The notes below the pieces were generated by a model. That model made no database searches, had not been told where the DNA came from, and worked only from the letters and a program-made list of their open reading frames with translations. From NCBI RefSeq assembly GCF_003334335.1, contig NZ_QOWQ01000062.1: a DNA stretch of 12,071 nucleotides; one strand, written 5' to 3'. Of this stretch, positions 1,591 through 6,924 are shown piece by piece. This stretch comes from Escherichia coli (GTDB lineage Bacteria > Pseudomonadota > Gammaproteobacteria > Enterobacterales > Enterobacteriaceae). The position numbers and the translations under genes were made by a program. Position 1 is the first letter of the stretch; every line of letters begins with the position of its first letter.

Positions 1591-2418
1591 TTAAACTTGG
1601 GGAAGTATTTTTTTTGCAAAATCAATAGTTTCTTTGTGGTTGGATGCAGGTATATGATTTATTTTCTTAGCATCCATAGTTCTCTTTATGATGTCAATAA
1701 CTTTGCTTTGGCCTGAGTTTGGTGATTCAGGAGTTTCAATTGTGAATAAAATGTCATCAAGTGAAAGCAGGTTTTCTTCTGCTGCTCGAGTTATTCTCAT
1801 CACCCAAGTATCACTATGCTCCATCATTTTTCCTGGTTCAGCTTGAGTGAATGCCAGAGGTTTGATGGCACATTGGATCCTGTCATGCTTCTTGGCGACC
1901 AATGGCATTGAGAACTTTGCGAAATACCCATCAATGGTTGCTTGTTTGAAGACGTTCTTCAATCCATCTATTCTATCTATACTTCGTTTTAGCTCTCTGG
2001 CTAGAACATCTTCACGGCGCTCTTTTGTGTAGTCAGAGTGGTTTACATATTTATTGTAAATGCGGGCCAGCTCTTCTTTTGGGTTTTCGCTGAGAATCAC
2101 TCTCGTAGAACTGAACTGAAAAATTGATTCTTTTTTGTTTGTAAAATATCTGAAGAATTGTGCAAGTTGTTGATGTCCAACAATCTGGGTCGCATGCATT
2201 TTTGCGAACTGTAGTTCTCTTTGTATTGAGTCTTTTGCTACAGGGAAAATACAATCATCATGGAAAAAATTCTTTACACGAGAGTCATTTCGCTTTGTGA
2301 GCTGGAAATCAAAGTAATTTTCTTTTGGCGCGCACAGAAGTACGCCTATGTTTGCGAACTCTTCAGTCTCCGCATAAGGCGCATAGCGAACGATGCTATA
2401 TAGGCATGGAGTTGTCAT
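1591..2418 (-). CDS. DUF3037-like protein of unknown function, second gene of the rex-position cassette
   Basis: ORF track 1591..2433 begins at a TTG. The first ATG (2416-2418) overlaps the upstream gene's TGA (ATGA overlap) and is preceded by GGAG. The N-terminal motif CLYSIVRYAPYAETEEFANIGVLL resembles the DUF3037 signature as I remember it. Visibly AT-rich compared with flanking phage core genes. Confidence 0.5.
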   Translation of the reverse strand: MTTPCLYSIVRYAPYAETEEFANIGVLLCAPKENYFDFQLTKRNDSRVKNFFHDDCIFPVAKDSIQRELQFAKMHATQIVGHQQLAQFFRYFTNKKESIFQFSSTRVILSENPKEELARIYNKYVNHSDYTKERREDVLARELKRSIDRIDGLKNVFKQATIDGYFAKFSMPLVAKKHDRIQCAIKPLAFTQAEPGKMMEHSDTWVMRITRAAEENLLSLDDILFTIETPESPNSGQSKVIDIIKRTMDAKKINHIPASNHKETIDFAKKILPQV

Positions 2419-3164
2419 TCTATTGCGCTCCAAAATTCATCACAATCACCTTTGTCTAGCGTAGTGCAGACAAAAGGTAAAAACTCCTCATCTACTATCC
2501 ACTCTTCTGGAATTTCGTCAAGGATAGCAGGAAGCTTGTGTAAACTGTTAACGACCCTCTGGCGGTACTCTACGCGATCCACTAAATCATATTGCCATTT
2601 GCGGTTACCAGGGCCGTACACGTGCACAGAAAAATCTTCAGGTCCAGCATTCTGATCAAATGAGAGATTATGGTCAATCAGATAATACTTATCGTTACTG
2701 ATGTCATAAAGGATGTTAACGTTTCCACCTTTGTCAGTAAGCGTTCTGTCTGCATTTAATATCCATTTATCAAAAACATAGATTAATTTTTGCTGTTCGA
2801 CTGGGATGATCGTTTCGTTTCTTGACTGCGTAAACGTTAACGCTATTGCACCGTCAATGAACAATGAAGCAAAGGCATATCCTGTACAAATTTGTTGCTG
2901 CAGATCAGGTGAGTACTCTATAAGTTCCTCTGGCACAAATACGATTTTAAAGTCAGGTAAAGGAAGGCCGATATCATTAGCCAAACACGCCGAAATGAAC
3001 TCAGCTAAGAGATTTTTCGGGGGCATTGATGGTTTTGACTTCAAAACATACAACTGCCCATCATCACATTTGCAAAGAAATGGCTGAGTGGAACCTTCAT
3101 TGATGCGACGTATTACTTCAACGACATTAGGTATTGCACTATTGCTGCTCGCTACGCACTCCAT
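2415..3164 (-). CDS. HipA-like kinase-fold protein (putative Ser/Thr kinase), first gene of the rex-position cassette
   Basis: ORF track 2415..3167 begins at a GTG; the adjacent ATG at 3162-3164 has an AAGGGT Shine-Dalgarno. The motif FDKWILNADRTLTDKGGNVNIL resembles the HipA-family catalytic loop (h-h-N-x-D-x-H/R ... N), and LIDHNLSF could be the DFG-equivalent metal-binding motif. The family call is from memory, not a search. Confidence 0.45.
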   Translation of the reverse strand: MECVASSNSAIPNVVEVIRRINEGSTQPFLCKCDDGQLYVLKSKPSMPPKNLLAEFISACLANDIGLPLPDFKIVFVPEELIEYSPDLQQQICTGYAFASLFIDGAIALTFTQSRNETIIPVEQQKLIYVFDKWILNADRTLTDKGGNVNILYDISNDKYYLIDHNLSFDQNAGPEDFSVHVYGPGNRKWQYDLVDRVEYRQRVVNSLHKLPAILDEIPEEWIVDEEFLPFVCTTLDKGDCDEFWSAIE

Positions 3165-3286
3165 CACTAACCCTTATGTGATTCAAGTCTTCCATCTCAT
3201 TACTCCGCATCTCAAAGAGCGGTTTAACACTGCGTGTTTAAAGAAAAACAACAGGCCTATTGCTGTAACTGTTTTTTAGCCTCACT

Positions 3287-3976
3287 TTAACCATGCTTCC
3301 TATATGTCTGCGGCATGCTCCCAATAACCTTACCGAAGATGAACACCCGGTTCATCTCGTCTTTCTCGATCGGGTCCCACGGTGAGTAGCTTTTGTTATC
3401 AGAGATGACCAGCAGCTTATCCTTCATCATTTGCAGGCGCTTTACATGGGCTGTGTCGTCGTACAGAAACGCATAGATACCATCACCGTCGAAAGATTTA
3501 ACTGTGATATCAACGAACAGCAGATCACCTGGTTCGATCGTTCCTGACATGCTGTCACCACGCACGTTAATGATGCGGATATTTTCCGCCTTCCTACCAT
3601 CGAACATGTGACGAGCATCGTCAAACGAGTACTCAACCGAGCGTAGAACTTCTACAAACTCACGGTTGATGACTCCCGGCCCAGCACTGACTTCTATATC
3701 AAGAACGTCAATCTTGAAGTATTTGGAATGGCTGACAGTTGATTGTATTGGTTGCACTGTACTGTCTGACATATTTCCAACGCCAGAAGATAACCATTCT
3801 GCGCGCACACCCAAAGCGTTCGCGATCTCCACGATTTTAGTTGTTTGATTAGCTTTCCCTGTTTCGATTTTCTGAATAGCAGCTTGGCTAACCCCGACCA
3901 AATCCCCAAGCGCCTTTTGTGTAAGGCCTCGCGCTAATCTGGCTTCTTTAAGTCTTTCTGAGAGTGTTGTTTTCAT
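3287..3976 (-). CDS. cI: CI-type prophage repressor: N-terminal HTH (XRE family) plus C-terminal S24 LexA-like autopeptidase domain
   Basis: Translation from the internal ATG: MKTTLSERLKEARLARGLTQKALGDLVGVSQAAIQKIETGK (HTH), then GDSMSGT (Ser nucleophile motif) and AHVKRL (catalytic Lys). The ORF track's 22-codon upstream extension is unlikely. No Shine-Dalgarno precedes the ATG, which fits a leaderless PRM transcript as in lambda. Confidence 0.85.
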   Translation of the reverse strand: MKTTLSERLKEARLARGLTQKALGDLVGVSQAAIQKIETGKANQTTKIVEIANALGVRAEWLSSGVGNMSDSTVQPIQSTVSHSKYFKIDVLDIEVSAGPGVINREFVEVLRSVEYSFDDARHMFDGRKAENIRIINVRGDSMSGTIEPGDLLFVDITVKSFDGDGIYAFLYDDTAHVKRLQMMKDKLLVISDNKSYSPWDPIEKDEMNRVFIFGKVIGSMPQTYRKHG

Positions 3977-4080
3977 AGTCCAAATGTACAACCAAGGTTT
4001 TATTCCATCAAACGAAAATGGTTGTTGACTAAAAACAACCATAGTTTTAATCTTGATTCAAATTAACCACGGAGGTTGTT
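3977..4080. promoter_or_regulatory. OR region with divergent PRM (leftward, cI) and PR (rightward, cro) promoters and operators
   Basis: PR candidate on +: TTGACT (4025-4030), 17-nt spacer, TAATCT (4048-4053). PRM candidate on -: TTGATG, 17 nt, TACATT ending about 6 nt before the cI ATG. Operator-like repeats: 17-mer AAAACAACCATAGTTTT (4032-4048) and inverted repeat GGTTGTT...AACAACC (4020-4040). Confidence 0.6.
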
Positions 4081-4380: not shown

Positions 4381-4920
4381 ATGCAACCACTTACATACCA
4401 ACAGACTAGCGGATTTAGCCCGACTGCGGTGATAAATCGTTCTCAAACAAAACAGGTGCCAGGCCACGAAAAAATCCGTGATGCCGTCCGCGCTTGGTCG
4501 GCTGAAGATAATCAGGATGTCGTTGCCACACTCATTGTGAATGAGTATCGGGAGCAGGGCGGCGGCACCATCGATTTCCCTGATGATGTCAGCCGTGCAC
4601 GCCAGAAGCTGTTCCGCTTCCTCGATAACAAATTCGATTCTGAAAAATACCGAAATAACGTGCGTGAACTGACCCCGGCAATTCTGGCGGTACTACCGCT
4701 GGAATATCGCGGTTACCTGGTTGAGCAGGATAGCTTCATGGCTAGGTTGGCTGAAATGGAAAAGGAACTCAGTGAGGCAAAACAGGCTGTCATTCTCAAC
4801 GCACCACGCCACCAGAAACTGAAGGAAATTAGTGAAGGTATTGTGTCGATGTTTCGTGTGGACCCAGATCTGGCTGGTCCATTGATGGCGATGGTTACTA
4901 CCATGCTGGGGGCGATATGA
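4381..4920 (+). CDS. CII-like regulatory protein (YdaT/CII functional-equivalent family), inferred mainly from position
   Basis: 179-aa ORF directly after cro with AAGGAG Shine-Dalgarno. Its 3' end overlaps the next ORF. Position and pairing with a YdaS-like cro suggest the YdaT-type CII equivalent; the sequence itself was not matched to a remembered reference. Confidence 0.45.
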   Translation: MQPLTYQQTSGFSPTAVINRSQTKQVPGHEKIRDAVRAWSAEDNQDVVATLIVNEYREQGGGTIDFPDDVSRARQKLFRFLDNKFDSEKYRNNVRELTPAILAVLPLEYRGYLVEQDSFMARLAEMEKELSEAKQAVILNAPRHQKLKEISEGIVSMFRVDPDLAGPLMAMVTTMLGAI

Positions 4921-5006
4921 CAGGTTCAGAAATGGCGAAAGCCGGTCTGCTGGAACAGAACCGACTTTCAGGTGCAAATCGTAACACACTCATTGCGGGA
5001 GGAATT

Positions 5007-5936
5007 ATGGCAAACACTGCTGAGATATTCAATTTTCCAGTGCCGGATGCGGCACAAAAGGAGCCGCGCGTGGCAGATCTCGATGATGGTTATACGCGCA
5101 TTGCAAATGAGTTGCTGGAAGCTGTGATGCTGGCCGGATTAACACAGCACCAGCTTCTGGTCTTCCTGGCTGTCATGCGCAAAACATATGGCTTTAATAA
5201 AAAACTGGATTGGGTGAGCAACGAGCAACTTTCCGAGTTAACCGGGATATTGCCGCACAAGTGTTCTGCTGCAAAAAGCGTTCTGGTAAAGCGTGGGATT
5301 TTTATTCAGAGTGGGCGGAATATCGGCATTAATAATGTGGTCAGTGAATGGTCAACATTACCCGAATCAGGTAAGAAAAATAAAGTTTACCTGAAAGAGG
5401 TAAATTTACCTGAATCAGGTAAGAAAAGTTTACCCAAATCAGGTAAAGGCGTTTACCCGAATCAGGTAAACACAAAAGACAAACTAACAAAAGACAATAT
5501 AAAACCTTTTTCGTCCGAGAATTCTGGCGAATCCTCTGACCAGCCAGAAAACGACTTTCCTTTGGAGAAACTGGATGCTGCAATTCAGAGCGGCAGCAAG
5601 TGGGGGACAGCAGAAGACCTGACCGCCGCAGAGTGGATGTTTGACATGGTGAAGACCATCGCGCCCTCAGCCAGAAAACCGAATTTTGCAGGGTGGGCTA
5701 ACGATATCCGCCTGATGCGTGAACGTGACGGACGTAACCACCGCGACATGTGCGTGCTGTTCCGCTGGGCATGCCAGGACAACTTCTGGTCCGGTAACGT
5801 GCTGAGCCCGGCTAAACTTCGCGACAAGTGGACCCAGCTCGAAATCAATCGTAACAAACAACAGGCTGGCGTGACAGCCGGAAAACCAAAACTCGACCTG
5901 ACAAACACTGACTGGATTTACGGGGTGGATTTATGA
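5007..5936 (+). CDS. O: Replication initiator O (mosaic: divergent N-terminal iteron-binding domain, lambda-type C-terminus)
   Basis: From the internal ATG at 5007 (GGGAGG Shine-Dalgarno): MANTAEIFNFPVP...VADLDDGYTRIANELLEA...RKTYGFNKKLDWVSNEQLSELTG aligns with lambda O. The C-terminus ...DNFWSGNVLSPAKLRDKWTQLEINRNKQQAGVTAGKPKLDLTNTDWIYGVDL is near-identical to lambda O. The track's upstream start at 4917 is probably an artefact. Confidence 0.9.
   Translation: MANTAEIFNFPVPDAAQKEPRVADLDDGYTRIANELLEAVMLAGLTQHQLLVFLAVMRKTYGFNKKLDWVSNEQLSELTGILPHKCSAAKSVLVKRGIFIQSGRNIGINNVVSEWSTLPESGKKNKVYLKEVNLPESGKKSLPKSGKGVYPNQVNTKDKLTKDNIKPFSSENSGESSDQPENDFPLEKLDAAIQSGSKWGTAEDLTAAEWMFDMVKTIAPSARKPNFAGWANDIRLMRERDGRNHRDMCVLFRWACQDNFWSGNVLSPAKLRDKWTQLEINRNKQQAGVTAGKPKLDLTNTDWIYGVDL
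5356..5510. repeat. Replication origin inside O: about five palindromic iterons followed by an AT-rich stretch
   Basis: Repeats of TTTACC-N6-AGGTAA at about 5359-5375, 5386-5403 (degenerate), 5405-5423, 5428-5446 and 5452-5470, each with internal dyad symmetry (TTACC/GGTAA), then AT-rich 5471-5510. This is the lambda-type ori architecture. Confidence 0.85.
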
Positions 5937-6634
5937 AAAACATCGCCGCACAGATGGTTAACTTTGACCGTGAGCAGATGCGCCGGATCGCCAACAACAT
6001 GCCGGAACAGTACGACGAAAAGCCGCAGGTACAGCAGGTAGCGCAGATCATCAATGGTGTGTTCAGCCAGTTACTGGCAACTTTCCCGGCGAGCCTGGCT
6101 AACCGGGACCAGAACGAACTGAACGAAATCCGCCGCCAGTGGGTTCTGGCTTTCCGGGAAAACGGGATCACCACAATGGAACAGGTTAACGCAGGAATGC
6201 GCGTAGCCCGTCGGCAGAATCGACCATTCCTGCCATCACCCGGGCAGTTTGTAGCCTGGTGCCGGGAAGAAGCATCCGTTATTGCCGGACTACCAAACAC
6301 CAGCGAGCTGGTTGATATGGTTTACGAGTATTGCCGGAAGCGTGGCCTGTATCCAGATGCAGAGTCTTATCCATGGAAATCAAACGCGCACTACTGGTTG
6401 GTTACCAACCTGTACCAGAATATGCGGGCCAATGCGTTGACTGACGCGGAATTACGGCGCAAGGCTGCCGATGAACTGTCCTGTATGAACGCGCGAATTA
6501 ACCGTGGTGAGGCTATACCTGAACCAGTAAAACAACTTCCTGTCATGGGCGGTAGACCTCTAAATCGTGCACAGGCTTTGGCGAAGATCGCAGAAATCAA
6601 AGCTAAGTTCGGACTGAAAGGAGCAAGTGTATGA
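5933..6634 (+). CDS. P: Replication protein P (DnaB helicase loader)
   Basis: MKNIAAQMVNFDREQMRRIANNMPEQYDEKPQVQQVAQIINGVFSQLLATFPASLANRDQNE... is near-identical to lambda P. ATGA overlap with the O stop. Confidence 0.95.
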   Translation: MKNIAAQMVNFDREQMRRIANNMPEQYDEKPQVQQVAQIINGVFSQLLATFPASLANRDQNELNEIRRQWVLAFRENGITTMEQVNAGMRVARRQNRPFLPSPGQFVAWCREEASVIAGLPNTSELVDMVYEYCRKRGLYPDAESYPWKSNAHYWLVTNLYQNMRANALTDAELRRKAADELSCMNARINRGEAIPEPVKQLPVMGGRPLNRAQALAKIAEIKAKFGLKGASV

Positions 6635-6924
6635 CGGGCAAAGAGGCAATTATTTATTACCTGGGGACGCATAAGAGCTTCTGTGCGCAGGACGTTACCG
6701 CGGTAACAGGCGCAACAGTAACCAGCATAAATCAGGCTGCGGCTAAAATGGCGCGGGCAGGAATCCTGGTCATTGATGGTAAGGTCTGGCGAACGGTGTA
6801 TTACCGGTTCGCTACCAGAGAAGAACGGGAAGGAAAGGTGAGCACGAATCTGATTTTTAAGGAGTGTCGCCAGAGTGCCGCGATGAAGCGGGTGTTGGCG
6901 ATATATGGGAGGACTACAGCATAA
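6631..6924 (+). CDS. ren: Ren
   Basis: MTGKEAIIYYLGTHKSFCAQDVTAVTGATVTSINQAAAKMARAGILVIDGKVWRTVYYRFATREEREGK... matches lambda Ren. Confidence 0.9.
   Translation: MTGKEAIIYYLGTHKSFCAQDVTAVTGATVTSINQAAAKMARAGILVIDGKVWRTVYYRFATREEREGKVSTNLIFKECRQSAAMKRVLAIYGRTTA

Follow-up and report, generated by a model that had tools for sequence, protein, structure and literature searches.

A mosaic lambdoid O gene in Escherichia coli joins a non-lambda origin-binding domain and its iterons to a lambda-type C-terminal domain and P

How does a replication initiator gene that contains its own origin come to resemble phage lambda in one half and not in the other? This question is raised by the O gene in a 12,071-nt stretch of Escherichia coli DNA, referred to here as the window, which represents the immunity–replication–nin region of a lambdoid phage. 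Its gene order is a module in the rex slot, cI, cro, a CII-like gene, O, P, ren, an insert of unrelated genes, ninB, ninE, rusA and Q. Phage PhiR5_1 (PV340545.1) is 100% identical to the window across O–P (4917–6634), and the annotation of that record matches the gene layout; a literature search on PhiR5_1 returned nothing relevant. The following neighbors of O are needed for the analysis.

1591–3167, minus strand: two-gene module in the rex slot
4381–4920: CII-like gene encoding a 179-aa protein with a YdaT domain
5933–6634, plus strand: P gene, encoding a lambda-type DnaB helicase loader (227 of 233 residues as in lambda P; phrog_109, 9e-98)
6631–6924, plus strand: ren, in which the lambda-like block ends at ~6896

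The O gene and the segments encoding its two domains are located as follows.

5007–5936, plus strand: O gene, replication initiator of 309 aa (ATG at 5007, TGA at 5934–5936, from the list of open reading frames)
5067–5351, plus strand: N-terminal origin-binding domain, aa 21–115 (Pfam PF04492, TIGR01610), of non-lambda sequence
5576–5936, plus strand: lambda-type C-terminal domain of O, predicted to interact with P (95.6% nucleotide identity to lambda; dS 0.21, dN 0.009)

The product was related to lambda O by BLASTP (6e-145) and to phrog_277 (3.7e-162). Its start at 5007 corresponds by homology to that of lambda O, with the Shine–Dalgarno sequence plus ATG, GGAGGAATTATG, aligning with lambda GGAGTCATTATG. 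Database records place the O start at an upstream ATG, at 4917. Rfam, applied to the entire window at gathering thresholds, yielded no match, so no known RNA accounts for the region 4917–5006. Within the protein, Phage_rep_O (PF04492) covers aa 21–115 (E = 1.2e-33), and the NCBIfam model TIGR01610 scored 82.5 bits, above its cut-off of 45.5; with this N-terminal domain and an in-gene array of palindromic iterons followed by an AT-rich region, O is an initiator of the Phage_rep_O type. At its other end, O terminates in YGVDL, identical to the last five residues of lambda O, which are essential in that protein (PMC6022878). P begins at 5933 and overlaps the O stop codon in ATGA, as in lambda. 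The lambda-type O C-terminus with YGVDL and the adjacent loader of the lambda P type together constitute a lambda-type O–P module.

The origin elements nested in the gene are of a different kind and were mapped as listed below.

5358–5374: iteron 1, TTACCCGAATCAGGTAA, the additional, distal copy, at 29 bp from iteron 2
5387–5403: iteron 2, TTACCTGAAAGAGGTAA
5406–5422: iteron 3, TTACCTGAATCAGGTAA
5430–5446: iteron 4, TTACCCAAATCAGGTAA
5453–5469: iteron 5, TTACCCGAATCAGGTAA
5470–5481: 12-mer ACACAAAAGACA, directly abutting the last iteron
5470–5512: AT-rich, A-biased stretch (74% A+T, 56% A) at the same position as the AT-rich unwinding region of lambda, the role of which has been described (PMC6022878, PMC7466680)

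Within the window, the motif TTACC-N7-GGTAA is confined to five positions (5358, 5387, 5406, 5430 and 5453); shuffled sequences predicted 0.23 chance occurrences, and five were reached in 0 of 200 shuffles. Each iteron is a palindrome of 17–19 bp with arms TTTACC and GGTAAA. An initial annotation of this DNA had described the repeats as TTTACC-N6-AGGTAA, which fits copies 2–5 but not copy 1, beginning ATTACC. Its view that the iterons differ from those of lambda was borne out: lambda has four iterons of the ATCCCTCAAAACGAGGGA type (ATCCCTC-N4-GAGGGA), compared to five TTACC-N7-GGTAA copies here. The comparison it proposed with other lambdoid origins likewise yielded no counterpart, as phi80 iterons are of the TTCCCGAAAACGGGAA type, unlike those of the window, and phage 21, considered as a source, was rejected because its O and iterons are lambda-type. 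We found no paper discussing the TTACC-N7-GGTAA iteron type in a literature search. The arrangement of the sites is nevertheless familiar. Successive iterons are 29, 19, 24 and 23 bp apart in the window and 20, 24 and 23 bp apart in lambda, so that the proximal four have spacings of 19/24/23 bp versus 20/24/23 bp. The array can thus be read as four core iterons arranged much as in lambda, with a further, distal one added, and a 10-aa insertion in the window O corresponds to the extra iteron. With these iterons and an N-terminal domain 49% identical to that of lambda, compared to 88% for phage ES18, the locus falls outside the rep-lambda specificity group.

Global alignment with lambda located where the resemblance changes. 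DNA identity is 53% across the N-domain coding region (5007–5357) and 40% across the iteron array, rises to 77% in the AT-rich segment 5470–5516 and to 91.5% at 5517–5575, and then remains high in the segment encoding the O C-terminus (95.6%), in P (94.2%) and in ren up to 6896 (92.5%), beyond which it drops to 61%. Overall, the O protein is 66% identical to lambda O, while aa 189–309 differ at a single residue (G288 for S). A two-rate model placed the change point at window position 5510, equivalent to lambda 39159, with a log-likelihood ratio (LLR) of 194.5 and a 2-lnL support interval of 5470–5517; the maximum LLR among 500 column shuffles, used as the null, was 9.2. The junction inside O proposed in the initial annotation is thus recovered as a sharp break in the alignment to lambda, and uniform divergence along O, which that annotation had named as incompatible with its proposal, is not what the identity profile shows. 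The junction lies in the AT-rich region to the right of the iterons, at approximately aa 165–170, rather than loosely in the middle of the gene. The lambda records NC_001416 and J02459 carry two misc_recomb features with blank notes, 39157^39158 and 39165^39166, which practically coincide with the change point. These features may mark crossovers of hybrid phages.

An identity break of this kind might also arise in the absence of recombination, if a single lambda-like ancestor had diverged unevenly, with diversifying selection on the N-domain and iterons and purifying selection on the C-domain and P. Diversification would be expected of specificity-determining regions, and dN relative to lambda, at 0.51 in the N-domain, indeed far exceeds the 0.009 of the C-domain. 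However, silent sites show the contrast as well. By the Nei–Gojobori method, synonymous divergence from lambda is saturated for aa 1–115 (pS 0.78), whereas dS is 0.21 for aa 189–309 and 0.22 for P. Saturated silent sites on one side and values around 0.2 on the other indicate that the two halves differ in age and not merely in constraint. The break at the DNA level is also abrupt, and N- and C-terminal similarities to other phages are incongruent (below; for example, 83% and 27% with Klebsiella phage GZ7 versus 49% and 95% with lambda). We therefore rejected uneven divergence without recombination on the synonymous contrast and the incongruent similarity matrix, and consider it highly improbable. 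The same data sharpen the two statements made earlier about the halves of the gene. The N-terminal half is unlike lambda (53% DNA identity, 49% amino acid identity, saturated synonymous sites). Near-identity of the O C-terminus and P to lambda is true of the proteins, but their DNA is ~5% diverged, with a dS of about 0.2, and the right-hand block is about equally distant in DNA, ~5%, from lambda, 434, SfI and Stx1a phages.

We compared amino acid identities pairwise for the N-domain (aa 1–115) and the C-part of O.

Window versus lambda: N-domain 49%, C-part 95%
Window versus GZ7: N-domain 83%, C-part 27%
Window versus P22 (gp18): N-domain 60%, C-part 30%
Lambda versus ES18: N-domain 88%, C-part 25%
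Lambda versus PhiR12_1: N-domain 54%, C-part 100%

The N-domain and the C-part assort independently across these phages, as judged from their sequences. The type of iteron goes with the N-domain: the five iterons of the window recur in GZ7 and those of lambda in ES18, and PhiR12_1 has its own, a third type (GTCAC-N7-GGTGAC, four copies) that is combined with a lambda C-part. The C-part, in turn, follows the neighboring gene, which is lambda P in the window and PhiR12_1, a DnaC-like loader (phrog_50) in GZ7, a T7 gp4-like primase-helicase in ES18 and the gp12 helicase in P22. These patterns of co-inheritance support the earlier suggestion that origin-binding specificity has been kept matched to the iterons and that the lambda O–P interface has been retained, as far as comparative sequence data can speak to function. 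An abrupt break, unequal synonymous divergence and incongruent relatives were found together at this locus, as in a natural intragenic mosaic.

The window can be placed more precisely among these systems. Lambda itself has the same O, P, ren order, the same ATGA overlap, an iterons-then-AT-rich origin inside O and the same 12-mer, and its right-hand module is closely similar (95% identity in the O C-part and 97% in P; 92.5% at the nucleotide level in ren). GZ7 shares the other side: its N-domain is 83% identical, its five iterons occupy identical gene positions, and both its 12-mer and the left half of its AT-rich region are as in the window, whereas its C-part is unrelated (27%) and its neighboring gene encodes a DnaC-like helicase loader. 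Among experimentally studied proteins, gp18 of Salmonella phage P22 has the nearest N-domain (60% over aa 1–115), lambda reaching only 49%. P22 gene 18 contains related TTACC...GGTAA-like in-gene repeats and the same 12-mer, but its repeats depart from TTACC-N7-GGTAA in that their spacers are shorter or irregular. The literature describes four repeats of ~20 bp in P22, unlike those of lambda, and different iterons in gene 18 of P22 and of phage L (PMC8022706). The P22 C-part is unrelated to that of the window (30%) and its partner is the DnaB-type helicase gp12, while the gene downstream of O in the window is lambda P; by both C-terminus and downstream gene, the locus is distinct from the P22 gene 18/gene 12 module. 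Salmonella phages ES18 and epsilon34, with their origin-binding proteins gp59 and gp50, provide the reciprocal natural mosaic, in which a lambda-type N-domain with lambda-type iterons is joined to a non-lambda C-part. Their partner gene encodes a T7 gp4-like primase-helicase where the window has P, and their junction sits just past ACACAAAAGACA, the same place as in the window. That the lambda-like N-domain of these two phages belongs to a different replication module has been noted before (PMC2629481).

The short sequence that follows the iterons, ACACAAAAGACA, is shared without change by the window, lambda, 434, SfI, Stx1a_PV728, GZ7, P22 and ES18; PhiR12_1 has one different base, and phi80 has diverged. 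Change-point analysis of the window against GZ7 gave gene position 493, equivalent to window 5499, and that of lambda against ES18 gave lambda gene position 450. Three independent junctions (window/GZ7, window/lambda and lambda/ES18) hence fall within ~45 bp after the 12-mer. For the window, the two comparisons delimit the following interval.

5499–5517: most likely crossover interval, with sequence of the GZ7/P22 type to the left of 5499 and of the lambda/SfI type to the right of ~5510

Being common to otherwise unrelated origin types, ACACAAAAGACA probably provides the short stretch of homology at which such exchanges occur. A more tentative proposal, for which we see somewhat less than an even chance, is that the 12-mer and the AT-rich stretch form a preferred exchange point, the 'linker' of Susskind and Botstein, with the extra distal iteron at 29 bp tuning initiation as in Stx phages. 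At such an exchange point, at least four origin-specificity modules (the lambda, window/GZ7, PhiR12_1 and P22 iteron types) and at least four helicase-recruitment modules (P, the DnaC-like loader, the primase-helicase and the DnaB-like helicase) may have been reshuffled. The Stx phages 933W and P27 have six iterons, of which the extra distal ones are weakly bound yet needed for efficient replication (PMC7466680). They share with the window the organization of a core of four plus distal extras, one at 29 bp in the case of the window, but their iterons are lambda-type and their O is lambda-like throughout, unlike the gene studied here.

The junction had been called a clean one, and this holds for the sharp change point but less so at fine scale. 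The boundary is graded, with identity to lambda climbing from 40% to 77%, 91.5% and 95.6% within ~100 bp. Bases 5500–5509 fit neither the GZ7/P22 type nor the lambda/SfI type, and five clustered substitutions at 5556–5572, which change LSVVKP to FPLEKL, are absent from lambda, 434, SfI, Stx1a_PV728 and PhiR12_1. The graded boundary and this private cluster allow for more than one event or for fast evolution of the linker. In the former case, the boundary would stem from two or more exchanges or from gene-conversion patches, for example a first at the 12-mer and a second around 5556–5572; the stepwise climb across 5470–5575, the bases that fit neither type and the absence of the cluster from the phages named above would all fit. 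On the other hand, no donor with the 5556–5572 variant was present among the sequences compared, and local fast divergence of a weakly constrained linker gives the same pattern. In the linker, dN relative to lambda (0.18) is close to dS (0.13), indicating weak protein constraint. We regard multiple exchanges as a minority explanation, unlikely though possible.

What the exchange meant for the protein was addressed by structure prediction. Lambda O is described as a DNA-binding N-terminal part and a P-binding C-terminal part connected by a flexible linker (PMC6022878); origin binding has been assigned to the N-terminal 162 aa (PMC2629481), and the O protein stays functional when the AT-rich region carries in-frame deletions (PMC6022878). 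An AlphaFold2 model of the window O, built from six sequences and with a low mean pLDDT of 54.8, is consistent with this architecture, as it predicts two folded blocks flanking a low-confidence segment at aa 119–197. Average pLDDT per 10-residue block was 58–86 across aa 31–120 and 62–78 across aa 201–280; a first low-confidence segment ends at aa 31, and low confidence resumes at aa 119. The iterons encode aa 117–155 and the AT-rich region aa 155–169, which places both the origin and the junction inside the predicted linker. A search of PDB sequences with O returned no match and hence no solved relative. Foldseek comparison of the model to the PDB gave weak matches to winged-helix proteins of the CRP/FNR, MarR and IclR families that were not significant (best E = 0.015), though consistent with a winged helix.

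A mosaic seen in one assembly could also be an artifact, namely a chimera formed from two co-resident phages during assembly or in the laboratory, and database matches contain one case of this appearance. Phage D2 (OM475427) joins a window-type O 5′ part out of frame to a lambda-type O and resembles a chimera or laboratory recombinant. The allele of the window behaves differently: O is read in an uninterrupted frame, the overlap of P with the O stop codon is exactly that of lambda, and the in-frame allele recurs at 95–99% identity both in phages isolated independently and in 2,368 complete E. coli genomes. This recurrence in independent complete assemblies refutes the chimera reading, to which we assign a negligible likelihood. 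The count comes from a megablast search with the O gene, taking copies of at least 80% coverage, and corresponds to 2,368 of 5,426 complete E. coli genomes (~44%), nearly all copies being 95–99% identical; in addition, the allele is annotated in at least 15 sequenced phage genomes. Partial O matches in E. coli were examined as candidate alternative junctions and rejected, as they represent degraded prophages rather than functional mosaics, with truncation by IS1, a deletion beside a SIR2 gene or an iteron deletion with a frameshift.

Taken together, and with no observation speaking against a mosaic, we estimate a probability of about 90% that the O gene is a natural recombinant of two functional modules. 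The sequence mosaic, the position of the junction and the patterns of co-inheritance are direct observations. The left module (~5007–5500) would provide an origin-binding domain, putatively of winged-helix type, with a non-lambda specificity class, and would nest its own sites within the gene in the form of five TTTACC-N7-GGTAAA iterons; it would also contain the leftward portion of the AT-rich unwinding region. The right module (~5510–6900) would comprise the lambda-type O C-terminal domain, lambda-type P and ren. By analogy to lambda, N-domain dimers would assemble on the iterons into an O-some, which would stress and destabilize the adjacent AT-rich DNA, and the O C-domain would then recruit P–DnaB. 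DNA binding, unwinding and P recruitment by the window O are expected on the basis of this analogy, and its C-domain–P interaction and DnaB loading are predicted from sequence similarity. As the iterons and the domain that would read them are nested in one gene, both should be inherited as one unit, and the O C-domain would travel together with its partner P. A crossover in AT-rich DNA encoding a predicted unstructured linker would therefore break neither fold and mismatch neither interaction.

In principle, a mosaic O adds nothing new, as swaps of O domains were already known from hybrid studies of 1978. The two-domain model of O rests on lambda/phi80 and lambda/82 hybrids (Furth and Yates 1978, as cited in PMC6022878). 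In these hybrid O proteins, N-terminal origin specificity and C-terminal P specificity come from different phages, as in the window; the hybrids are products of laboratory construction or selection, while the window allele is natural and widespread. It offers a natural illustration of how phage modules can be swapped without breaking them: a site and the domain that reads it move as a unit, a partner-binding domain stays with the partner gene, and the exchange occurs in DNA encoding a flexible linker. For annotation, the window allele, and not that of lambda itself, is the common 'O–P' origin type in E. coli prophages. Because it is common and non-lambda, lambda origin specificity should not be assumed for such loci, and cross-reaction with this allele is not expected for ori-lambda-based plasmids or in incompatibility or replication-inhibition assays.

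The point at which the window and lambda change from divergent to matching sequence within O lies at window position 5510 (lambda 39159), and the GenBank and RefSeq records of lambda (L001) list two misc_recomb features, their notes left empty, at 39157^39158 and 39165^39166, within a few bases of it. These features may mark crossovers of classical hybrid phages. Shortly downstream, five substitutions are clustered in 17 bp (window 5556-5572) and change LSVVKP to FPLEKL. The cluster is private to the window lineage, being missing from every lambda-type O compared, and may have arisen through gene conversion of a small patch or through fast evolution of the linker.

Other phages carry O junctions of their own. 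Phage PhiR12_1 (L015 575-740) has a third origin type, with four GTCAC-N7-GGTGAC iterons, joined to the lambda C-terminal part, which is 100% identical; the junction is again at ACACAAAAGA. In phage D2 (OM475427; L017 100-1122), O is of the window type to about window 5252 and then of the lambda type with lambda iterons. The switch is out of frame, and the record splits the gene into two CDSs; this O has the look of a recombinant made in the laboratory, or of two phages joined into a chimera during assembly.

The start of O is placed at ATG 4917 both in the record of PhiR5_1, a phage identical to the window over O-P, and by RefSeq in a homologous prophage of E. coli. This start gives a protein of 339 aa and makes O overlap the end of the YdaT-like gene before it. 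By homology, the probable start is rather ATG 5007, with a predicted product of 309 aa. Window 4998-5035 aligns with the lambda Shine-Dalgarno sequence plus ATG, and O of the Klebsiella phage GZ7, which has the same N-domain class, is separated from the preceding gene by a gap and begins at the corresponding Met. The additional 30 aa encoded from 4917 (window 4917-5006) matched no PHROG family.

Around the start of O lies a minus-strand element (4939-5032) of two parts:

5032 to 5004, minus strand: sigma-70-like promoter, TTGAAT-17-CATAAT, with TG upstream
about 4939-4970, minus strand: strong hairpin following the promoter

In lambda this position is taken by pO and the antisense RNA oop, and the element may be an oop analogue. 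A simple scan detected no terminator, and a search of Rfam gave no match.

Left of O, three features were considered:

1591-3167, minus strand: two-gene module adjoining cI
3287-4042, minus strand: cI ORF, 251 aa including a 22-aa leader (MVVFSQQ...), according to the ORF listing and the PhiR5_1 annotation
4381-4920: gene at the cII position for a 179-aa YdaT-domain protein, matching phrog_163 'CII-like transcriptional activator' (1.4e-67)

The two-gene module lies where lambda has rexAB. In PADLOC it matched PDC-M66, a candidate defence system (A, 5.8e-15; B, 4e-16), and in NCBIfam it had no match. The PhiR5_1 record names the pair HipA toxin and HipD antitoxin. The product of 4381-4920, named 'toxin YdaT domain-containing protein' in RefSeq, is not a lambda-type CII, which has 97 aa. 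For cI, the annotation of E. coli SRY157 has at the equivalent position a gene of 690 nt for an S24 family peptidase, which suggests that translation in the window may really begin at an internal Met, at 3976 (MKTTLSERL...).

Decayed copies of the window O allele occur in E. coli. In the degraded prophage of SRY157 (L006 3440-5610), a window-type O breaks off after iteron 3-4, with a gene of the SIR2 family directly downstream. In E. coli CRE287 (L016 447-547) the same allele carries four iterons. It has lost 23 bp between iterons 4 and 5, which causes a frameshift, and its annotation is that of a pseudogene. This copy illustrates iteron slippage during the decay of a prophage.
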